The notes beneath the pieces were generated by a model that saw only the letters and a list, made by a program, of their open reading frames with translations, was not told the DNA's origin and searched no databases. Made by a program: the position numbers and the translations under genes. From Yuukianura sp. NJ FZ-2021 (taxonomy: Eukaryota), in assembly GCA_046563655.1 (NCBI GenBank), contig CM102284.1:8060001-8124000 (forward strand): DNA of 64,000 nucleotides. Reading direction: 5' to 3'. Positions 28,733-61,200 of the stretch are shown piece by piece (position 1 is the first letter of the stretch; every line of letters starts with the position of its first letter).

Positions 28733-30414
28733 TCAGACGCTCTTAGTCTGCACTTTTATTGGTTGTTTCCTTAGGGCATGGACATACTGGTCAAGTTTTA
28801 AAATGCATTCTGAAATAACTTTGTCCTTACTCTGATTAGCATCTAGTACGATAATCGCTGTCTGTGTCGGAAATTTCCGGATAAGCCAGTCTTCATAAGC
28901 TCCGTGCAAATCTGTCAAGTACTCCATGGAGCACAGGTCTTCCGCTGCTCTAGCCCTTGTCTTCATCCGTTCATAGGCTATTTTAGGGTCAGTTTGTAAG
29001 TAGATGATCACATCTAGGTTGCATTCAGTATGTTCCTCCATCCATTTGTGCCATTCTGACAACACACTGAATTCTGCTGGATGCAACGTTCCATTTCTCC
29101 GAGCAAGTTCCATAAAGCAGTGCCTACAATAAAAATATCACTTTCATATGAATTAGCAAAGACATCTCCAATCTTTAGTACAGATTCCATGTAATTTGGT
29201 CGGAATTATTTGGTCGGAAGTGAAAAGATCGGAGGTGAAATGGTCGGAAGTGAATTGGTCGGAAAGTGAAAACGTCGGAGGTGAAAAGATCGCACCATGA
29301 AATGGTCGAAAAGTGAAATGGTCGGAAAGTGAAATAAGTCGCAACAACAAAAGGTCGAATGGCAAAAATGTCGAAAAAAAGTTGTTGTTTTTTTTCGAAA
29401 ATAACCTAACCTTAATTTCTCTATGATGTAAGCCAAAAAAGCTACTTGAACAAAAGTGAACGGAATGTAAAGTGCAAAAGTAGTCGAGTCGGAATCAGTA
29501 TTTCAAACGTTAAAAAGCTTAACCTCGAGGCAAAATCAGTATTGTGAACTTTAAGAAACCTAACAACGCGCCTTCGGCGGGGGAAGATAAACACAACAGT
29601 GGAGGTACGGGACGGAATAAAATCATCAGCAGTGGATAGTGGTTTTGCCTTGCATCCTAGAAAAAAAATTCTTTTATGTTCTTGTTTAGCACCCTTGAAT
29701 TAGGCTAAAACCCAATTTTGAGCTAAGTCGGACAACAAAAATTTCGATTTTTTTTTTGAAATTTCGAAGGAACAAAAAATTTCGACATTTTATCATTCGA
29801 CCTTTTGTTCTTGCGACTATTTCACTTTCCGACCATTTCACTTTTCGACCATTTCATGGTACGATCATTTTAGTGTGCGATCTTTTCACCTCCGACCAAT
29901 TCACTTTCCGACCAATTCACTTCCGACCATTTCACCTCCGATCATTTCAATTCCGACCAAATAATTCCGACCAAATTACCTGCTACGTTTAGTACAGAAC
30001 TGGTTACCTGTTATTTTGTAGTGATCGCTCCATTATCCGAAAATGGATGTTTGATACCATTGGTTTGTCCTCAGAAGGTAAGTCAGTTGCTGCCGCAGCA
30101 TTAGATTTCACGATGTCCGTTAGACGAGTAAGTTGAACGTAGTTTTCAAATAGGAAGTTAAGCTTTTGAGGGTTCTTGTAAAACATCTCCAGGAGATTAT
30201 GGCCTTTGACATTACACCATTTATCCAGTGGTTCTGGAATGACTTCTACTTGAGGCCGTATTTCAACTGGCTTTGAAGTAGTAATTCCATCTTGTAGTCG
30301 GGTACTAAACAGTCCATTCTTCGGTAACAACTCCACCAGTTTTGACACCAGCGTAGACTTTCCACTTGAGATATTTCCATCAACTGACAAGGTAATCATA
30401 TTCTTTATTCTCAT
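28733..30414 (-). CDS. dnk: Deoxynucleoside kinase (Dm-dNK/TK2/dCK family)
   Basis: Exons 30414-30008 and 29123-28733. P-loop DGNISSGKST, PEP, MERS, IIYLQTDP, lid RARAAE, YLTDLH-YEDWL. Confidence 0.93.
29183..29987. mobile_element. Non-autonomous foldback/Mutator-like element in the dNK intron
   Basis: ~215-bp terminal inverted repeats made of ggtcggaa(a)gtgaa subrepeats. 9-bp TSD tttagtaca at 29174-29182 and 29988-29996. Removing it restores a 70-nt intron. Confidence 0.88.
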
Positions 30415-31460
30415 GCCTTAATCCGAATCAGGGGAACAATTCTAAAAGATGGACACGGACAGTTAAGAGAAAAATTAAAATTAGTTAGCGAATCGGATGG
30501 AAATGAAGTAAATGACATACCTTTCGTGTCAGCAAAGCAGCAGAACACGATGCCGGTATGGGTTGGCTTACAGTTAAATTGCGTGTAGGCAGCAAGCAAT
30601 TTAGTACAATTTACGTAAAACTCCGTCAATTAAATCAAAAGTTAATTAAAAACCACTTTGTGCAAAATTTAACAAAAGAATTTGTTTTGTGTTGATAAAA
30701 AATTTGATTTTGCATTGGTATTTCAATGCATTTGTCATTGCAATAGTATTTTTAGACGAAACTCCAATTGACATTGCCACTGCAATCTTTTATACTTTAC
30801 ATGTTAAATATTTTCAATAAATATTAATAAAGTATATAATATCAAAGTATATGGTATATACTGGTCTATAGATGGTTTATAATGATATATTAATAGGTAG
30901 ATTTACTTTATGTTTGTAAAACGAGTTTTACAGTTAATAGTTTTGCATTTTGGTTTTTGTTACAGTGAACTGCCATTCCCATTTCGTAGTTTCGCAATAG
31001 TGAAGCGCGGGCTGAGATAGGTTGATGAATCATTCAAAAAAGTGACGACAGCGATAAACTTCTGACACTCCGGCTCCGTGACCTTGTTTGACCTTTGTTG
31101 TTCAGTGACCTTTTTTTGACTGACGTTGCGTTTATTTGACGTGAAGTAAAGATTAAATGAAACAAAGCTGACAGTGGACGTAACCCTCATGATACAAGAG
31201 GGAAGAAACTAAATATTAAAAAGGAGGAGGGACAGGGGGGGGATTGGATTGGACAATTGGAGATCGAGGTCATTGGGTCACCTTGAACTTCTGCTTTACT
31301 TAAGGTTCGTATCATTTTAATCAGACCACTTTCCGTATTCATTACAAAGGAATATCAGTGTCCACGGGCTCGGACTTTACATTTTTTTACAGCCAAGAAT
31401 TCCATTACTGAGTTTTGAAGGCCCTTTGCGACGGACATTGTGCCAGCACTGATTGAAGCG

Positions 31461-38153: not shown

Positions 38154-39813
38154 TTTCAAAATTGTTGTCAAAATTTTTGTTTTTTTTTTTAAATTACGAA
38201 TCTGAAATTCTAGAAATCCGGTTCCGATTTACTTTGTATCACACCCTGCCCTTTCTCTTGGGTACAAATATTGATTTCTTTCTTTTCTGAGAATTTGAGT
38301 CGTAAAAGAGAAGAAAGCAGCCACGGGGGAAAATCAATGACTTTCTCCCATGCGCATTTTGCCGTTTTGGTTTCAGCTTTCCACAGTAATAGTGTACTTA
38401 TTTTTTCAAAAAATGTTCATTTTTTATTGTTTTGTAAGTAAAAAAAAATTCTTCGTATTCTCAATACAGTCGCGGAGAGATCGCATCTCTAATGCATTCC
38501 ATTCCCGAGATCTGAATTTTTTGAGTTTTTGAAATTTTTAGAAATTTCCGTTGTATAGTTACTAAAGGCTCCTCAAAAAACTGACCGGAGCTATGCGGAT
38601 ATTAGGCGAAACAGAAAGGCTCCTCTCCCTCTCAACTTTTTTCCCGCCGGTGCAGTGGTCTTCTTCCCATACAAAAATCCAAAAAGCAACGAGGGGCTAC
38701 CTGCCTCTTTGCTCCGTATAATCCCCTATCTCAAATCCACCAAATTCACTCCGGTCACTTTCCAATTTCTCAAATTACAAAATTCAAAAAAATTCAACCT
38801 TGTTGCAATTTTTGAAAACACTTTGACATGTTGAAGTTGCAGAACAAGATCTGGCATACTTTAGTACAAAAAATTTTGCAAAAAAAGTAATTTTCAACAA
38901 TTATTTGACAATATTCATGGAATTTATTGTTTTTGAGGTTTAGATTAACGGCTAAAATTTTTGCAATTCAACTAGTGAGGATAAATAATGTTCAAAATTT
39001 TGTGAAATTTTGAAAAATAAACTTTACGCGTTCCTGGATTTTATTTTGGAAATCCAATGTAGAGATGCTTTCACATGAGGTTACACTGCTGCTGCTACTC
39101 AACTGAAAACGAAACAATTATAAATAAAATCAATCTCAAGTCAATTAATACAGCTGTAGTGCCATTCTGATTATTGCATAAGTCGTAAACTGAGCGGATT
39201 TAATTAATTGCTCCAAGATTGTAATTAAAATAATTAACGCTTTATCAATTAAAAATAAAACAAGTTTGTTTCCTATTGCGTCAACCGTATAGACGCCAAT
39301 TTCTCCTTTGAGACACGACTTATTCAGCAGCGCGGGAAAAGTGTTAAAATTAGATTTCAAATAATTTCGGTGGTTGTTCTAGCGGTTACTCCACAACACC
39401 CCTTGTCACCCAACCAAATTTTAATTGCTTTTATTAATCGAGTATTTGAAATGATAATTAATCGTTCAAGTCTTTAGCCACAACTTTCAATTTGAAGAAT
39501 AATTTACTAAACTTTAAATAAACTTCCCTTTGAGTTTATAAGCAACTTTGCTTTACATTTCAAATAAACTATGCCAAAGGACGAACATTTTACAGCAAAA
39601 ACTAAATTGTACAAAACACCAAGATGTTGACCTTATTTAGAAACTGTGCCTGGTTAACTGGTCAAAAGGTCAAGCTTACAAAGTAAAAGGCAGAGTTAAA
39701 GTAGTTATGTCTTTGAAGGAAGGGAACATCGTCATTTGTTGATCAGCTGATGAAAATTCATGATTCCTAAAGTGTTGTCTGAACGTGACAGGATGTGCCG
39801 GTTATTTCCGTGT

Positions 39814-51443: not shown

Positions 51444-54382
51444 TCATCTTTCGTCTTCTTCAGATCTTCCTGCAGCTTCTCTCAGTTCTTGTAGAGTGGT
51501 CGTCAGTTGTTTCGTTTCGGCGGCTGAAACCGGTTCAGCCAGAGCTTGTGTCAGCGCTTCCTCAACAACTTCATAAACGATATGATCCAGAACGAATGCC
51601 GTCAACTCGGGATCGATCGGCTCCGAAGTCGGAGATACTTGTCCAGCATGTTCCGGTTCGGTTTCAGTGTCGACCGAATCCGTCAGCTGTTCGGTTTTCG
51701 GTGTCTCCGAACCCAATGTGATCGTTATCGTCTGATTTGTGTCACCACTGGCAGTTACTGAAGTTTCAACTACTTGGAGCGATGCTTTTTCGCCTGAAGT
51801 ATCCAGTTCAGCACCGCCCAACTTCCTGGACAAGTTGTGGTCAAGCTGGTCCGTTTGGACGGTAGCGTAGGCAATAGTTGTGTCCGGTATATCGCCAATC
51901 ACAATCGTAGAACTTCTTGGAGAAACAACGTGTGAACCGGATGTCGGAGAAGGGATACGGGAATGTGTTCTTAGCGTAGGAATAATTGACGACATTCGTG
52001 GCGACGTCCTGACCACAAACTCGCTTCGTCTTTGGGCTATAAGTTCTTGAGCTAAAAAAAACATAGGTTGTTAATATCGATTAATCATCAATACTTAACT
52101 TAATCATCAATTAATTAGTTCCAAGTCCAACTAGGGGTGTAAATCCGGCACCGCTTTCTAGAAATCCGGATTTCGGATTTTTATGCAAAAATCCGGATTT
52201 CAGATTTTTGACGAATTTTGATTTACATCTGGATTTCGGATTTTGGTGGATTATGATTTACATCTGGATTTCGGATTTTGATTAAAAAAAATCCGGGTTT
52301 CGGATTTTAACTGAAATCCGGATTGCGGATTTGGATTTAATTTCAGATTTCGGACTTGAATTCGAAAATGCGGATTTCAGAGATTTAAAAATCCGGATTT
52401 CAGAGATTTAAAAACACAGATTTCACAATATAGTACTAAGTTGAAACTTGCAACTTACTGTCCTCACGACGACGTTTCACTTCTTGGACATTCAGGATCC
52501 GGCTCTCGAACATTTCATTGAGCAGCGATCTGGCCCGGCCACGCACAAACGCTGACATTCTGGGCTCCAAGTGCTCAAATTCTATCTTTTCAACGCGACT
52601 TTCAGCTTCTCGGATGATTTCGTCAATGAACGCTTCTGCATCAGGTACGACATCATTCACTTTCTGCTCTGCTTCTTCTATGATTCCGTCCACAAAGGCA
52701 TTGAATTCCGGCTGTTGTCGAAAGATCACCTCAAGATCAAGTTCTCCAAGGGCTAAAAGAGTAGCAATGTTGGATGCTGATCCAAAGAACTCCTGCGCAG
52801 CATCCCTAATTTCCTGGACAGTTTCGTCTGACAAGTTGGCATCTTTGAGGAATCGCTTAAACTTGGCCATGTCCCGGAGGATCATGGATGTCCGCATGGC
52901 TTCGGACAGCATTTCGTCGGCAATGAGTCTTCCGAATTCCAGTCGCTTAGCAACATCTTCTGGACTGATTCCAAGTTCAGCAAAACCGGCATTGAAAATG
53001 TCGCCTAACGAGTTCACTTTTTTCAGAGGTGCTTGACTTTCGCGCAGTTTTAGCCCCATTTCGAGCAGTTCGTTGATTAGAGCTGACACGATTTTGTCTC
53101 TAACGAGGATGTGACGAACGGTGAACTCGACTGACGGAGACTCCATGACGGTGGACGAGCGTTCGATTCCATCCAGGTCAAATTTCAAGTCGGAAAATGC
53201 TGACATGTAGTCAGTCAGCTGACGAGTACAGTCAATAACGGCCATTGGATTTTTCATGAGGTAGCGATACGGGTAGCCATGCGTTTCACAGAATTTTTCA
53301 AACGTTGTGCGATCGTAGGACTCGCCACTCCATTGTCTCTGTTTCAAGTACTGCTCAAATGGAACTTTGCACATCAGATCTACAAAAATTTCAGATTTTG
53401 AAAAGGTTGTCATTTTTTGAAAAAAAAAAAGTTCAAAAACGTTTTTCAAAAACTGACCTCGCATGAAGTTCGGTTTCGGGATTTTGATTATTTCACGAAT
53501 CTTGGCAGCAATGACCTAAAAATCATAGTTTTTGAACAATTATTCTAGACTTTTTTTTTAAAGGAAAAATCAAGCATTTTCAATGTTATCTCAGAATTTA
53601 TCTTCAGGATACTTGGCGATATCGCGATATCTCGATAGTGTAGACAAACCTGGATATCTTTGAAATACTTGAGCCCCATTTTACTCAGAGCAGAAGCGTC
53701 AATCGTAATTAGCTTTCTTCCAGAAACGAAATTATTCACAAACATGTCCTGTGGGGAAAAAAAAACAGCTTTTTTTTTGTGAAAATTTTTCCAAATTTCG
53801 AACTTTTTTCAAAATTTTGAACTTTTGAATGTGTTTGACCTTGAGATGTTCATATCCAATTGAACTTATCCATTGTCCAACTTGTTCTACACTCCAGTAG
53901 TAACAGGAAGGCAGATCCGGATCTTCTGGAATGACGACGTCCGGATGTCGATTGGCGTTGATCTGTCTCACGTGAATGATTATCTTTTTGATGTCTCTAA
54001 AATTTCGAAAAACATTTTTAAAAATGTTTTCAAAACTTTTTTGAAAAGTGAACTCGTACTTATCAGAAAGGTATTTGATTGGTGGTTTGATCTTGCGTTT
54101 GACCATTTGGAGCTGGACGTTGAGCCAAGCAGCAGCAGTCTTCGGTACTCGTGTCATCACTGCTCTCATTTGCCTGAAACGAAGTAAACAGAGCATGACG
54201 ACATCCTCCACGGTTCGTTTCGTTTTGTTTTGAATCCGGGTGATTTCGGCTTCGATTTGCGGATCAACAAAGTTCGTGAGGAGCAGAAGATGTTTGTGAG
54301 ATGTCAACTTTCGGAGAGAGTTGGACTCTTTGTCCAATGTCGGAAGTTGCTGCAGTCGCTTCGTCCTACGACGATCCATCAT
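51444..54382 (-). CDS. SAM-domain protein (SAMD15-like domain) with long helical/acidic C-terminal extension
   Basis: Spliced YYWSVEQVGQWISSIGYEHLKDMFVNNFVSGRKLITIDASALSKMGLKYFKDIQVIAAKIR is a SAM fold. Downstream exons at ~52459-53379 and 51444-52053 join with compatible phases. Confidence 0.75.
52132..52432. repeat. Intronic CGGATTT tandem array, probably an old MITE
   Basis: Begins taggggtgtaaatccgg, followed by many ggattt(c)ggattt units; right end degenerate. Confidence 0.55.
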
Positions 54383-54766
54383 TCTGGACGTCTGTCAAGT
54401 TAAAATGGAACGATTAATTGTCAATTGTCGTGATTTTCAGAATTTCAGATTCTAGATTTTCAGAATTTCAAATTCTAGATTTTCAGAATTTCAAATTTTA
54501 GATTTTCAGAATTTCAGAAATCAAAAAACATGAGCATCTTCTGGAGAAAGAATTATGACAAACCAAAATTATTTTTAAAAATTTTACTGTCGTTTCCATG
54601 ACAAAGTGTGGCTATCCTTCCTCGGAATCTTTAAAAAAGTAGAAACTTATCTGAAACTGCCTATATAGCTATCCCGTATCGAAGTAATTCAGCTATCGGT
54701 TATCGAAGTTATCGAGCATTGGATTATCTAAATAAACAACTTTACCAGGATCTAGGATCAGCTGAT

Positions 54767-56072
54767 TTAAATTTTACTTGCTATGCCAGTATTAGAATTG
54801 TGATGGACAAGAAACGTTTTGTTGCCTGATTTGATGAATTTGAGGTTCATGCGACGTAAAACTCTTCTGAAGCTCGTATGACTTCCTTGAAAAGCTTCCT
54901 TCTCCATCGCTTGAGCCATGACGCTGCTGATGGTCGGTCGGATTCTGAAAACAGGCAAATGTTGACGTTAAGCTAACATTTTTTTTCGTACTTGTGCTAA
55001 ATGAATTTTCAAATCACTTACTTGTTTTTGGTCATGTCACGTACAATATTTCTGATTATGGCTTCTTTATGTTTGTCAACTTTATCCAAAACGTGTTTTG
55101 TCTTTGGAGTAGTTGGAGTAGGAACGATAATTTTTCCATGAGTCTCAAACCGATTCCGTACTTTTCCAATAACACCTAAGAAAGGGAGTTAAAAAATTGA
55201 AACAGTTTTTGAAACTTTTTTAAAAATTTTGAATTTTTCATTTTCAATGAACCTGGCGTGACGTTGAGGACTTTTGCTGCTTGTTCCTTCGGATTTCCCA
55301 ACTTCTTGAGAGCGTAAGGGTCATGTTCCGTTCTTTTAAAAAAGTCATAGACATTCAGGATCAACTTCTGTGCTTGTACTGTAAATGTTTGTCCACTGTA
55401 AGAAAATGGGAGTTCCATGATATCCTTGTTACGGACTTTGGGTTTCTTCTTCTTCTCTTCTTCTTCTTGGGGTGGCAGGGATTCTTCAAATTGAATTACT
55501 TCTTGATCAATTACTTCTTGATCAATTACTTCTTGGTCAATTGATGAATGGTACATGATCCCTTGTTCGTCCAAGTCTCCCTCTCCAGGAACTTGTGCAT
55601 AGTGTTCACCTAATAATTCAGTTTCCCTCTGGTCATGATCGTCCAGTCCATTCAGAATGACTTCGTCAAAGGTACTTTTGTCTCCGACGATTATCAAGTC
55701 AGACGGATCGAATCTCTGTTGGTCTTCGTCCATTCCTTGGTCGCCAGACTCTGACCTGTCAGTGACATTGAGTATATTGACTAGTTGCTGACCTGTCACA
55801 TCACCATCAACTACTGCAGATATGACGTAGGTCTGTCCATTGACTTCCAATGTCAACTCGTCTCCAGATGTCGGTAGGTACTGAATGATATCCGCACCGT
55901 TCGCGGACTGTACTTTTGCGCTGTCGTGTTCCGTGAATGATGCAAACCAAGAGGAAGTTGACGGTAGTTGGATAAAAGTGTTACTGTGAGGTTGTCCATC
56001 TGGCTCCAGTGTTTCTTCTTGTTCTGCTGCCGGTATTTCTACGGTTTCCTCTTCACTGGACATTGTTGACAT
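54767..56072 (-). CDS. Acidic protein with C-terminal IS630/Tc1-type transposase-like HTH region, no DDE domain
   Basis: Exons 56072-55253, 55175-55022, 54944-54767 splice in frame via GT-AG introns. C-terminal part reads QAQKLILNVYDFFK...EQAAKVLNVTPGVIGKVRNRF...TP...VDKHKEAIIRNIV...PTISSV...FQGSHTSFRRVLRRMNLKFIK. Confidence 0.8.
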
Positions 56073-57182
56073 GACGGTGTCAAGTTACAGCGGATCAGCT
56101 GATCTGTCCAAGACGTAACTTCGCTATAAAAATGTAGACGAACGTATTAAGGACACCAAAAAACGATCAAATTTAATTGCAATTATGCTAATCTACCCCA
56201 GACAATACTGGCCTACCTACCTAGGCTAGCGGAATTTCTCAATAAATCGATAACTTACCGGATAAGTTGATGAATGAAGATAAAAAAGTAGAGAATCAGC
56301 TGATTTTTTTAAATTTGACAAAAGCAAATACGAAAGATTCCAGTGCAATTGCAAAATAAGTTTTGCAATTGCAGTTCGACCTCTTGAACTTTCGTTGCAA
56401 TGGCATTTGCTACGATTCAAGTTTTTGTAATGGCAAAATCACAAATTGCAATGGCAAAACACCAGATCTTATTGCAATAATTTTATAGCTTTGTATTTCC
56501 TAATGGCATTTCTAACAATTCAACACAATTTGTTTATGACAAAATTGGAAATTGTAATGGCAAAAGTACAAAACACATTTTGTAGTTTTAGAGTTTTGTA
56601 TTTCAGAATGGCAGTTGTTGTGTTTTGTATTTTGTTTATTATTTAGCTTTTTTAGCTAATTTGAATTGTTGTTTTTAAAATAATGATGGGTGGATTTTTT
56701 TTAAATTCCATTTTCAGTAATTTAATTAGCTAATTCATTCTCTACTCGATTTATTGATTGCACAATCAATTAGTAATTGCTAATTCAGTGTTGGCTTTTC
56801 CCCGGGGATTTGATGTTCTCCCCGGGAAATTGGGGTTATCCCCAAATTCCCGGGGATTTGGGGATTATTGGGGCCCTCGCGATGTTTAGTACTGCGCAGG
56901 CGCAGCGTCTGCGCAAAGCCAGAATTCTGTGTAGCTCCACCCCGAACATTCCCACACATTCCCTGTTTTGTTCTTTGTTCAAATCCGTCATCATGAAACT
57001 TTAACTTAATTCCGGTGTTGAACATTTTATATTATATAATATTTACAATTTATTATATTATAATATATAAATATATTATAAATGATATGCAATACCGGAA
57101 TATATGTATAATGATATTTATAATGCCTGTAATTTAATATAATATGCATAAGTTTGATCATATATGTATAATATAACATATA

Positions 57183-57879
57183 CAGGGTGTACCACCAGAA
57201 AGGAAACGCTCGAAAACTAATTTCTTTGTTTATTTGATCGAATATGAGGGGGAAACCGTAGCAAATATTAGGAAAAAAACCTAAACATTTTTTAGTGTGA
57301 ACCAGACCGTGCTAAGTCCCTTGAGTAGAAATTTTTTTTACTGTGAACCAGACCTTGCTAAGTCCGTTGAAGAGAAATTTTTTTACTGTGAACCAGACCT
57401 TGCTAAGTCTCCAGATTATGAAAAATTTTACTGTGAACCAGACCTTGCTAAGTCCGTTGAAGAGAAAATTTTTTACTGTGAACCAGACCTTGCTAAGTCC
57501 GTTGAAGAGAAAATTTTTTACTGTGAACCAGACCTTGCTAAGTCTCCAGATTATGAAAAATTTTACTGTGAACCAGACCTTGCTAAGTCCTTTGAAGAGA
57601 AAATTTTTTACTGTGAACCAGACATTGCTAAGTCCTTTGAAGAGAAAATTTTTTACTGTGAACCAGACATTGCTAAGTCCCTTGAAGAGAAAATTTTTTA
57701 CTGTGAACCAGACCTTGCTAAGTCCGATCGAACGATCAACGGGTCTTGCAGAAATTAAAAAAAAATTTTTTTTAAAGCTCGTTATTATTGAGTACGTTTT
57801 CCCCTCCATGTTTACAAGTTTTTGTTAAGTTGCTCATAGCAACGAATTTTTGGCGTTTCCTTTCTGGTGGTACACCCTG
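57183..57879. mobile_element. Tc1/mariner-type MITE nested in the hAT element
   Basis: Perfect 27-bp TIR cagggtgtaccaccagaaaggaaacgc, flanked by TA on both sides. Confidence 0.9.
57291..57725. repeat. 45-bp minisatellite, 10 conserved cores
   Basis: tgtgaaccagac starts at 57296, 57342, 57387, 57432, 57477, 57522, 57567, 57612, 57657 and 57702. Confidence 0.95.
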
Positions 57880-58233
57880 TATAATACGTTTTATTTATTG
57901 ATAAATTATATATAATATATATATTCAACACATCACTTATGGTTCCCATTATTTGCGTGTTATTAGATAGGAAACCATAAAAAAACTCATACATTTTTCG
58001 TTAAAAAAAACGAAATCCCCATAGAGCCCCAAATCCCCACCTCCGAGCCTGGGGAGAACCCCATTAATCCCCACCCCAGTCCCCAGTGGGAAGGGGGTGC
58101 TGCCAACACTGTGCTAATTAGTTGACTACATTTGTGTTTTCCTCCTTCACAAATTACAGACAGCTGCCAACTCAGCTGTGCTTAATCTTCGGCTTACAAA
58201 TAACTAATTGGCACTTAACAGTTACAGAAAAGT

Positions 58234-61200
58234 ATGAAGCCGCTGCCTCTGGAGGATTTACTGACCGAAATTCCAGTGAAGTACAAACTACAAGTTTCCG
58301 CAACTGCGACTGGACGAAACCTAATTTGCGCTGTTCACATCAACTGGCTTCGGTAAGTCGTTGACCTTTCGTAATTGTAATTCAAATTCAAGTACTTCAA
58401 TTGATCATGTGTTTAATTTGTTTTTCAATCTATCAGATCAGTCATTTCGGAAAAGAAACTTCCGTCTGAATTTGTGAAGCATGAAGCTCTCACTGATGAC
58501 CAAATATTTGCTTTCATCAATCAAGGGAAACCACAACCCTTGGGACCGTTTTGGGCTTTCATTCATGTCAGAGTAAGTAATTAGTCAAGAGAACACTTTG
58601 AATTGAACTTTAACTCAACAGCATGCAAAGCTAATTGAACTTTTAACTCCAAGGTGTACTCCATTTCAAAAGAAATCAAGTTATTCAAAAACCTGAAAAA
58701 AGAGGCTCCGCCGGTGACGATGATGCCATACTTGCCACCAGCCGTCATTGGCCAAGGATCAAATCCAAAAACATGGCCGCAAATTGTTGATTTCATTGGA
58801 GAGGCTAACTTCAACTACGTCCAGGAAAATCCTTACGTGTCACTCTTAGGTAACTCCAGTTTTTATGATCCACTGCTATAATTTATTCCTCTATTATGAT
58901 TTTTTGTTTAGACTTGCCAAATGACCACAACATTGACTCAGGGACATCGCCAGAACCACTGGAACTGCCAGAAGACGAATACTTTCAAAAAGTTCTTGAA
59001 ATACTCTTCGTTGATCACAAGTGCTCAACTGCCCAAGAGTCTGACCAGTCCATGACATCTCCTGGATCACCCCTTCAAGAACTTTCAAGATTCTTCAAGA
59101 TCTCAAATCTCGCTCAACCTCTCTCAATTATTGTCAAGCAAAACGTTGATTCTACGACTGCTCTCCTCTTCTACTCTTATACTGAACATACCCTTCAAGA
59201 CTGTGTGGACTTTTCGCCTCAGAAACTAAACACTTCGTACATGAAGCAACTTTTCGTGATTTACCAAATCCTGCAACTGATCTACGACTTAGAGCTTCTT
59301 GGCATCCATCCTGGCAACTTGACGCTTTGTAACTTCTGGACCGATGACTGTTTGCATGTCACTGGAGCTCCGATTCTCACTGAAGTTCTGAAACAACTTG
59401 AAGTTGAGCCTCCAGTGCCGGTATCCCGAACAGCCGAAGTTGAAATTTTCATTAACTTTGCCATTCAAAAAGTCAAGGACGGAACTTCTCTGGACAAAAC
59501 CGAGCCTCAACTGACGCCGGAACTACTGGAATCCATTATTCGACATTGGTGTGAAGGGCTGGTTTCGAACTTTGAGTATCTCATGTTTCTCAATTACTTG
59601 GCCGGAAGATTTTGCAATGTGAATCCCAACTACCATGCTGTTTTTCCATGGGTCAATGACTTTTCTGGAAGAGGAGGAGGGTGGAGAGACTTGACAAAGT
59701 CCAAGTTTCGGCTCAACAAAGGCGAAAGGCAGTTGGATTTGATGTTTGAAGAAAAAGGCGGAGGTGCTGGGACGCCAGTAAGTTCAAATTCAAAGTTTAA
59801 TGTTTAGTTCGTTTTCGAATTTTAGTTTTCTGATACTTTCAGATCCCACATCATGTGACGGATATTTTGTCGGAAATTACGTACTACGTCTACAAGGCTC
59901 GTCAAACTCCGAAAGAAGTTTTGTGCAAGTTCGTTCGTCCAAAGTGGGTTCCAGCGGAGTATCCAGTTTCTATCCAGCGTATGGCTGAGTGGACTCCGGA
60001 TGAATGCATTCCAGAATTCTACGATGATCCAACCATTTTCACTTCAATTCACTCGGACTTACCTGATTTGTTACCTCCATCCTGGTCATCATCTCCAGAA
60101 GAATTTATAGAACAACATAGAAAACTGCTAGAGAGTGATCAAGTATCTTCTAAACTTCATCACTGGATTGACCTTACTTTTGGATACAAATTGAACGGAG
60201 TTCCAGCTGCAAAATCAAAAAACGTTTACTTGTCGATTGCTGACAATCATCAAAATCTAACCAAAACTGGAATCGTTCAACTCTTCCAGACGCCACATCC
60301 ACCACGTCGTAGTCCTCGCAGAGACTTGAAGAATCAGGTCAAGTTCATTGACCTCAAAAGTATGCCAACATTTCATCATCAACATCAAAATTTTGAAGCT
60401 AAAAATGTTTTTCTTTTGCTTAAAACGTTTTGCTTTCGCTTGAAACGTTTTTATTTCCATTAAAACGTTTTTATTTCACTTAAAACGTTTTGATTTCGCT
60501 TAAAACGTTTTTCTTTCGCTAAAAACGTTTTTCTTTTTGTTTCTTTTTTTTTCAGGAATGAGGGAAGGCGACACTAGTCATGACAAGGACAACTTGACGC
60601 TTCCGAGAAACTACGATCCGTGTGGCTTTTTGAACGATTTTGAAGTTTGTTTCAAGTTTTTCAAAACTCACTTCAACAATACCGCTGGAATTCATCTAAA
60701 AGATGTCAAACCACATCACTGTCTTGACCAAACTTGTTCGTCCTATGATGGATCTCCATCCTCCGATTATGTCAAACTCTTCGGTTGTCTCATGATAGAA
60801 CTTCTACTACCGTCGAAACTGCACTACATTTCCAGCAAACTACGTTCTGTCTCTCACCGATTTGAATTCTACCAAAAACAACTCAGAAACTTCGAACCTC
60901 TTCCGATTTTTATGAAACGGGTTATTCAAGCTATCTTCTCACGCAAGGAATCACTGGCCTTTGCTATTCCACTGGAAATTTCAATTGAACTTCTTCTACT
61001 GAACAAAGGATTGAGTCCAATTCCATTTCCAACGTACTTCCCTGCTGTATACAAACTAGTCCGAAGTTTACGAAATTATGACACGACACTCCGAACAGCT
61101 GATCCGCTGGATGTCGATTTCCGGACGAAAGTGGAGGAACTGAAAGTGAAGTCATTTGCAAGAGATTTGATTCAAATTTTGAAAGATTTTGATGAAGAGG

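Follow-up and report, generated by a model that had tools for sequence, protein, structure and literature searches.

A three-exon springtail gene joining an acidic region to a transposase-type DNA-binding module and lacking a catalytic domain

What kind of gene occupies positions 54,767 to 56,072 of a 64,000-nucleotide stretch of the genome of the springtail Yuukianura sp. NJ FZ-2021 (assembly GCA_046563655.1, contig CM102284.1, positions 8,060,001 to 8,124,000)? A first-pass annotation of this stretch, called the window below, proposed a domesticated transposase in which an acidic domain had been joined to the helix-turn-helix (HTH) DNA-binding region of an IS630-Tc1-mariner element and the catalytic DDE domain had been lost. 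Our analysis confirms the observation itself: the locus is a three-exon gene with an acidic region, a transposase-type HTH region, and no catalytic domain. The explanation that we prefer as a whole, a domesticated transposase gene that acts as an activator-type regulator, is given a probability of roughly 0.65.

In a scripted splice model, the gene lies on the minus strand and consists of three exons that join in frame (1,152 nt in total, 383 amino acids), as the first-pass annotation had claimed. Exon 1 (56072..55253, 820 nt) starts at an ATG at 56072, with an in-frame stop 12 nt earlier, and ends at the donor G|GTTCAT; it encodes the acidic region, a KKKKPK patch, and the first HTH unit (HTH1) through its second helix, ending one base into the codon that follows '...AAKVLNVTP'. 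Intron 1 (55252..55176, 77 nt, GTTCAT...TCTTAG, phase 1) interrupts HTH1. Exon 2 (55175..55022, 154 nt) encodes the HTH1 recognition helix (GVIGKVRNRF), a linker between the domains (VPTPTTPKTK), and helix 1 of a winged HTH (DKHKEAIIRNIVRDM), the secondary structure being assigned from an AlphaFold2 (AF2) model of a relative, P0008. Intron 2 (55021..54945, 77 nt, GTAAGT...TTTTCAG, phase 2) is followed by exon 3 (54944..54767, 178 nt), which encodes the remainder of the winged HTH (IRPTISSVMAQAM...FQGSHTSFRRVLRRMNLKF) and a 22-residue tail and closes with TAA at 54769-54767. Both introns are of the GT..AG type. The gene end at 54767 had been placed correctly, and the stop had been misread as following directly on 'KTFLV'; the frame in fact continues for 12 codons (HHNSNTGIASKI) to the TAA.

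The protein falls into two parts of opposite composition, with 24% D+E and 3.4% K+R in residues 1-208 and 20% K+R in the remaining 175. For most of the acidic N-terminal region (55455..56072, minus strand, residues 1-206), disorder is predicted; a threefold DQEVI repeat lies within it at 55494-55538. Next comes the KKKKPK patch (55437..55454, minus strand, residues 207-212), which by its composition may be a nuclear localization signal. The conserved C-terminal part, with HTH1 and the winged HTH, covers about 165 amino acids (residues 221-383). The first reading of the protein thus holds in kind, with its basic patch and all of its quoted C-terminal motifs present in the spliced product, and needs correction in length: the D/E-rich part spans about 206 rather than about 230 residues, and the basic C-terminal part about 165 rather than about 155.

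Relatives were sought at the protein level. A word-index search with the exon 1 sequence gave three relatives out of 440 candidates, and another search two out of 49. A HMMER profile of the HTH region (A2, 114 positions), scored against 1.84 billion representative proteins, matched 42 proteins at E<=1e-3, 19 at <=1e-10, and six at <=1e-30. The top group (P0004-P0022, E 1e-54 to 1e-23) has the same order of parts, an acidic N-terminus and then the HTH region; the N-termini of the relatives are acidic but cannot be aligned with one another. P0008, P0013 (Allacma fusca), P0015 (Orchesella dallaii), and L003 all extend beyond 'RMG[YF]K' without a DDE domain. A species could be assigned for four of 20 protein clusters examined, and the two members of the DDE-less group with an assignment are both from springtails (A. 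fusca and O. dallaii). Absence from relatives had been named in advance as an observation that would speak against a host gene; DDE-less relatives were found, these two species included. The contigs that carry the relatives are 1-1.5 kb long. An identical protein from the window genome itself was absent among the matches in the protein collections searched, so the locus may be unannotated.

Both splice junctions are supported by homology in addition to their GT..AG borders. Across the exon 1/2 junction, the alignment of P0004-P0008 is uninterrupted, and the window sequence '...AAKVLNVTP-G-VIGKVRNRF...' has the same length as '...AGKILNVSSSVIGKIRNRF...' of P0005. The exon 2/3 junction is likewise uninterrupted in P0008, P0013, and P0015, whose sequence beyond it follows the motif '...[IV].PT[IL]P......R[IL].[FY].G...S[FL]RR[IL]L.RMG[FY]K'. 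An intron at the end of exon 2 would truncate ORF calls (open reading frames) at that point; in 16 of the 19 close relatives (P0004-P0022), the ORF call breaks off no more than six residues from the end of exon 2, which fits intron 2.

Intron 2 was found directly in two genomic contigs, L002 (GG|GTCAGT...CCTTTCAG|A, phase 2) and L003 (GG|GTAATA...GGTTACAG|A, phase 2). In these and in the window (AA|GTAAGT...TTTTCAG|A), it has the same site and phase, one residue before I-T-P-T. The three sequences belong to three divergent subgroups yet share the intron, which is therefore an ancient one. Intron 1 occurs in the window gene only, none of the close relatives examined having it, and the divergence of a further subgroup (P0025, P0028, and P0033) past 'GK[LF]' suggests another lineage-specific intron. 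Contig L001 (1,072 bp) carries the complete 267-codon ORF of P0008 with neither intron; the flanks resemble untranslated regions, ATTAAA occurs 17-22 nt before the contig end, and the ORF has its stop codon at the place equivalent to the window stop. L001 may be a transcript contig, the alternative being intron loss; if it is a transcript, both the joining of exons 2 and 3 and the early stop gain support within the window's own subgroup. In L003, a metagenome contig, the two ends (1-60 and 1480-1518) both translate to '...EHTSELQSHHDL' and 'GRASCRERV', strings that we take to be typical of sequencing-adaptor read-through. We regard them as probable artefacts and place no reliance on the open end of the exon 3 ORF in L003.

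The weaker A2 matches connect the gene to transposases. P0026 (E 6.9e-10), P0034 (E 9.2e-6), and P0039, P0040, P0041, P0043, P0044, P0045, and P0046 (E 1e-4 to 7e-4; 4.2e-4 for P0045) all align over both HTH units. Past 'GF[KR][FY].K', those with enough sequence continue as '...R..L.....I...R..YL', which leads to 'Y.DETW' in P0026, P0034, P0039, and P0043 and to 'YLDETC' in P0045. At the position of this motif, P0040 has 'YLDEVN' and P0041 'VYTGTE'; P0044 and P0046 do not extend that far. The Pfam family DDE_3 was found in two of the 40 matches scanned: P0034, an A. fusca protein named 'Tc1-like transposase DDE domain-containing protein' in UniRef (50.4 bits, cut-off 28.6), and P0045 (23 bits, below the cut-off). 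P0045 and P0047 represent two loci of Rhynchophorus ferrugineus, of which only P0045 was among those scanned.

Profile-profile comparison with hhalign of the DDE-less group (the window protein and 19 relatives) against ten transposase-like proteins gave a probability of 99.9% (E 6.3e-37, 148 columns). The transposase-like proteins had been chosen by the HTH1 profile, so the comparison was repeated on the segment equivalent to exon 3 alone, which lies outside the search profile; it reached 98.0% (E 1.8e-13, 47 columns), as compared with 14% for the reversed segment and at most 4.5% in 20 of 20 column shuffles. Homology of the C-terminal region to the DNA-binding N-terminus of IS630-Tc1-mariner transposases of the DDE_3 type is well supported by sequence comparison, which upholds the resemblance proposed at the outset. 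The protein ends 22 residues after 'NLKF' (equivalent to 'GFKF'), at a point where the transposases proceed toward the first catalytic aspartate. Neither the catalytic part of P0034 nor that of P0045 revealed a DDE remnant in a tblastn search of the 64 kb. The catalytic domain is thus absent, as had been claimed.

Searches of other kinds were less specific. Single exons of the window gene gave no Pfam HTH match. Among 38 members of the family alignment A3, sub-threshold matches were obtained to HTH_23 (8/38), HTH_29 (5/38), and HTH_28 (4/38), the best at 21.5 bits against a cut-off of 28.1. The best rows in the ESM Atlas were eukaryotic clusters, and its family-named rows, DUF7769 (0.91) and HTH_23, HTH_Tnp_IS630, and HTH_psq (0.83-0.84), are taken as no more than leads; hmmscan of the 38 members recorded 39 Pfam families at E<=1, and DUF7769 was missing from the 25 that matched most often. 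A profile search of the Protein Data Bank (PDB) with A3 returned two sequences at E<=10, the best being CylR2 (0.39), and nothing usable.

The fold was predicted from the contiguous domain of P0008, which is 47% identical to the window protein over 141 codons. The AF2 model (38-row alignment) has a mean pLDDT (predicted local distance difference test) of 87.2. It shows four helices (residues 22-37, 44-47, 51-59, and 63-76) in its first part and three (103-119, 125-136, and 142-151) in its second, these three being followed by a beta-hairpin (155-166); the linker between the two parts (77-94) is modelled with low confidence. When compared with 48,161 chains by VIA-align, residues 98-173 of the model matched many winged-helix DNA-binding domains (247 chains at Z>=5), the best being the winged-helix domain of SAMD1 (Z 8.6, root-mean-square deviation 2.4 over 67 residues); coverage was mainly of these residues, and HTH1 was barely tested. 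The match is a generic fold assignment for the model and indicates no specific relative. No PDB chain reached E<=0.001 in Foldseek, where the top row was a weak one to the Pax6 paired domain (6pax_A, E 0.045, TM-score 0.23). Of the structural and profile comparisons suggested on the first pass, the profile comparison was therefore positive (99.9%), and Foldseek yielded only generic or weak rows. In the AF2 model of exon 1 (21-row alignment), 143 of 273 residues have a pLDDT below 50; weak strands are predicted at 42-103, and the HTH1 helices at 232-268 have a pLDDT of 73-84.

Several features point to a host gene rather than a mobile element. Of the 58 inverted pairs in 53000-58500, 25 were examined, and low-complexity A/T matches aside, not one of these 25 encloses the gene, in agreement with the earlier statement that terminal inverted repeats (TIRs) are lacking; all that flanks it is a 10-bp palindrome, taken up below. 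The HTH of the gene is found once within the 64 kb by tblastn. In the six pairwise comparisons of the window gene, L001, L002, and L003 (138-144 codons), nonsynonymous divergence (dN) is 0.46-0.63 and amino-acid identity 41-47%; the NG86 estimate of synonymous divergence (dS) could not be computed for five pairs and is 3.1 for the sixth. Amino acids have been conserved well past synonymous saturation, which points to constraint.

A maximum-likelihood tree was built from 39 rows (the window protein, 22 DDE-less relatives, and 16 others), leaving out the short fragments P0023, P0027, P0036, P0038, and P0042 and the near-duplicate P0047; for seven of the 16 others (P0024, P0029, P0030, P0031, P0032, P0035, and P0037) there is no evidence either way on the presence of a DDE domain. 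All 23 DDE-less rows form one clade. It divides into two subclades, one with the Allacma and Orchesella proteins and the other with the window protein (support 94/91). These may be either old paralogues or lineages, and the Allacma and Orchesella proteins either orthologues or old paralogues of the window gene. Viewed by the criteria for domesticated genes used in PMC13548663, as its accessible text gives them, the locus combines transposase homology, loss of mobility features, an intact ORF, and DDE-less relatives that form a clade apart from the transposases. It is very likely that the gene is a domesticated, DNA-binding-only derivative of a transposase.

According to the accessible text of PMC8533490, IS630-Tc1-mariner transposases, whether bacterial or animal, are generally built as a pair of HTH units followed by a DDE domain, and the HTH modules bind the transposon ends sequence-specifically. 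The same text describes the Sailor group, which is frequent in arthropods and characterized by DD82E (range DD78E-DD111E), the consensus 'VIIMDNA' and 'NPIEL', and TATA target duplications; domestication is treated there in general terms only. Among the DDE-bearing relatives of the window gene, the spacing from the second aspartate to the glutamate is 81 residues in P0045 and P0047 and 85 in P0034, inside the Sailor range, and 'MDYAPYH' or 'IDNAPYH' and 'NPNE' or 'NPIE' surround the catalytic residues. On the basis of this spacing and these local motifs, the parent transposase was probably Sailor-like. The window gene, which has neither catalytic domain, TIRs, nor TATA duplication, is itself not a Sailor element.

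Comparable domestications are known. In Drosophila, CG4570, cag, and toy (with its Pax paired domain) are given in the accessible part of PMC13548663 as domesticated Tc1/mariner DNA-binding modules, and co-expression ties the DNA-binding-only CG4570 to functions in the cell cycle and in chromosomes. The window gene, compared with CG4570 and cag by description only, resembles these cases in that only the N-terminal HTH module was kept, cut before the DDE domain, at a fixed host locus without TIRs and perhaps under purifying selection. It differs in parent lineage (the spacing of its nearest DDE-bearing relatives being 81 and 85, not 34), in the position of the module, C-terminal behind a long acidic region, and in its springtail hosts. 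With the Pax paired domain it shares a bipartite HTH pair with a linker, and the paired domain is also the weak top Foldseek row; here, however, the second unit is a winged helix with a beta-hairpin, and the PDB profile search gave no sequence match to Pax. A study of 'transposase capture' (bioRxiv 10.1101/2020.05.07.082677) has reportedly described transcription factors that are fusions of host and transposase sequences. As in those, a transposase DNA-binding domain would have been combined with a non-transposase effector region into a new regulator, but the partner here is acidic, disordered, and encoded by the exon that also holds the start of HTH1, and it is not a recognizable host domain of the KRAB or SCAN kind attached by splicing. 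Our literature search recovered no paper on such a gene in springtails or from Sailor-like elements, although supplements could hold lists; springtails are not mentioned in the accessible text of PMC10027918.

How might such a protein work? It would retain the paired-like module (HTH, basic linker, winged HTH) of a DDE_3-type and probably Sailor-like transposase, having lost the DDE domain and the TIRs, and this module would now stand behind an acidic and largely disordered region of about 206 residues and the KKKKPK patch. The patch could mediate entry into the nucleus, the two HTH units would bind specific DNA sites, originally the ends of the parent element, and the acidic region would recruit the transcription machinery, making the protein a sequence-specific activator. 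From the function of the module in IS630-Tc1-mariner transposases and the composition of the N-terminus, we infer that the protein is nuclear, binds DNA sequence-specifically, and most likely acts as an activator; the role of activator-type transcription factor is nevertheless put forward tentatively, at somewhat less than even odds.

Several points weigh against this reading. Direct binding, nuclear localization, and activation are each deduced rather than observed. No exon or relative reaches the gathering score of a Pfam HTH family, and solved transposases are absent among the listed Foldseek and VIA-align matches, which is not in itself evidence against a relationship. Because synonymous sites are saturated, there is no numeric dN/dS, and the support for the DDE-less clade (90/90) is moderate. 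Transposases of this type have a basic, GRPR-like linker between the two HTH units. The window protein also departs from its relatives: the basic linker ('PGKKR.R.K' or 'PGQRRRK' in relatives) has been lost and replaced by VPTPTTPKTK, and the G of 'RMG[FY]K' is replaced by N, so that its DNA binding may differ or be weaker.

The divergent upstream neighbour is WDR81, as had been noted, with a Pfam BEACH domain (E 1.4e-21) and best matches to WDR81 of Orchesella cincta (76%) and A. fusca (73%), followed by insects (no more than 71%). Downstream on the same strand, the ORF at 53732-54394 (minus strand) may start at 'MMDRRR', behind an acceptor-like ttgacag, and near its C-terminus it matches SAM_2 below the threshold (E 0.0031); the ORF at 52436-53515 (minus strand) encodes 359 amino acids without a Pfam family. 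The 370-bp spacer between the gene stop and the next minus-strand ORF contains a short tandem array (54432-54524) with periods of 8, 15, and 23 bp and units TTCAGAATTTCA and TCTAGATTTTCAG. One tblastn row from the search for DDE remnants, at 30097-30351 (P0034, E 0.011, the only row below E 1), was rejected as a chance match, its aligned residues belonging to the HTH region and overlying a kinase-like ORF; this ORF (30004-30417, minus strand) has a P-loop, 'GNISSGKSTL', and motifs that we take to be like those of deoxynucleoside kinases.

A fuller consensus for the core-promoter E-box is AWCAGCTGWT. The 10-bp palindrome ATCAGCTGAT occurs at 56094-56103, 56295-56304, 54757-54766, and 39742-39751, four copies in the window where 0.08 are expected (0 of 100 shuffles reach four). 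Three surround the gene: two precede the ATG, at distances of 22 and 223 bp, and the third (54757-54766) comes directly past the stop. The E-box CAGCTG is a housekeeping core-promoter motif in Drosophila (PMC3375229, accessible text), and the palindromes are probably E-box-type core-promoter elements, the two upstream copies serving this gene and the third the next gene downstream. This interpretation was preferred to a remnant of TIRs, which was set aside, and to a binding site of the protein itself, which is possible. The motif WATCGATW, which resembles the DNA replication-related element, is not enriched in the window (four copies against 3.95 expected, one at 56245).

The spacer between the gene and WDR81 also holds an element resembling a miniature inverted-repeat transposable element (MITE) at 57179-57883, 1.1 kb upstream of the gene. 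Its ends are a perfect 31-nt inverted repeat, TATA then CAGGGTGTACCACCAGAAAGGAAACGC, and since they begin with TATA, TA or TATA could be a target duplication. The interior contains at least eight copies of a 45-bp tandem repeat (57289-57783), and no coding capacity was seen.

Among the relatives, six proteins (P0029, P0034, P0039, P0040, P0041, and P0043) have a long extra N-terminal region ahead of the HTH pair. Several of these regions share '...C..[SE].CG.F..LL...' and '...S[IL]SRC[ST]...PMQ...F....P[ST]PGS.N.C' and have no Pfam match; in these transposase-like proteins, the region may be an undescribed accessory domain of the transposon lineage. In P0032 (820 amino acids; 1,127 in one of the cluster members P0169-P0171), the HTH region lies at the extreme C-terminus, preceded by a large, unrelated region without a Pfam match; here the DNA-binding module may have been fused to another partner.

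Other explanations must be set against a domesticated gene with an activator role. Truncated transposases block the active transposase in other systems, and the protein could be a trans-acting repressor of its parent transposon family that occupies the terminal repeats. The end-binding module is the only part of the transposase kept, springtails have related elements that carry a DDE domain (P0034 of A. fusca is one), and a TA- or TATA-flanked MITE-like element lies nearby, all of which a repressor would accommodate. It would not account for the acidic domain, which competitive binding does not need, or for the conservation of the long acidic architecture across deeply diverged relatives, and the antiquity of intron 2 implies persistence beyond the usual life of one transposon family; we regard repression as quite unlikely. 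We hold an architectural or chromatin role, in which the protein would bind repeats or chromosomal landmarks in the manner of the pogo-derived CENP-B-type proteins, to be equally unlikely. Two DNA-binding units and a long acidic disordered region are a composition also found in chromatin proteins, and the co-expression of Drosophila CG4570 with cell-cycle and chromosome functions (PMC13548663, accessible text) would agree with it, but this likeness of composition is non-specific and no dimerization domain was seen.

The remaining explanations dispute the domesticated gene itself. The locus might be a decaying transposon fragment with chance or mis-built exons and introns and no functional gene, a notion to which the lack of any Pfam domain at threshold lends something. 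The intact 383-codon frame, the residue-for-residue match of both junctions in relatives, the 41-47% identity despite saturated synonymous sites, the conserved intron position, and the lack of TIRs make it the most improbable of all. Scarcely more credible is a complete transposase with its DDE domain in further exons, or descent in the reverse direction, with a host HTH captured by a transposon. A possible donor (GCAA|GTAAAA) lies near the stop, but tblastn found no DDE-like coding sequence in the window, the next ORFs on the same strand are unrelated (one SAM-like, one without a Pfam family), and P0008 on L001 stops at the equivalent place. Against reverse descent, the HTH pair with DDE is the general layout of IS630-Tc1-mariner elements (PMC8533490, accessible text), whereas the DDE-less group is small and its two species-assigned members are both springtails.

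This kind of domestication is known and would not surprise a specialist; the family is new and undescribed. Domestication of transposase DNA-binding modules is a recognized source of regulators, as in Pax, the CENP-B relatives, CG4570, and cag, and to our knowledge few such cases have been documented outside vertebrates, flies, and plants. The family described here offers a clean case, intron-bearing and DDE-less, with identifiable DDE-bearing cousins, and with 42 profile matches in 1.84 billion representatives, it is small enough to be studied as a whole. A bolder proposal, which we think unlikely though worth stating, is that it represents a springtail-wide family of transcription factors, born once from a Sailor-type DNA-binding module and an acidic activation region, with at least two deep lineages (that of the window and that of Allacma and Orchesella), and still binding sites derived from transposon ends, such as MITE termini near genes. 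If this were true, one transposon family would have supplied both the regulator and the dispersed binding sites for a hexapod-specific regulatory network.

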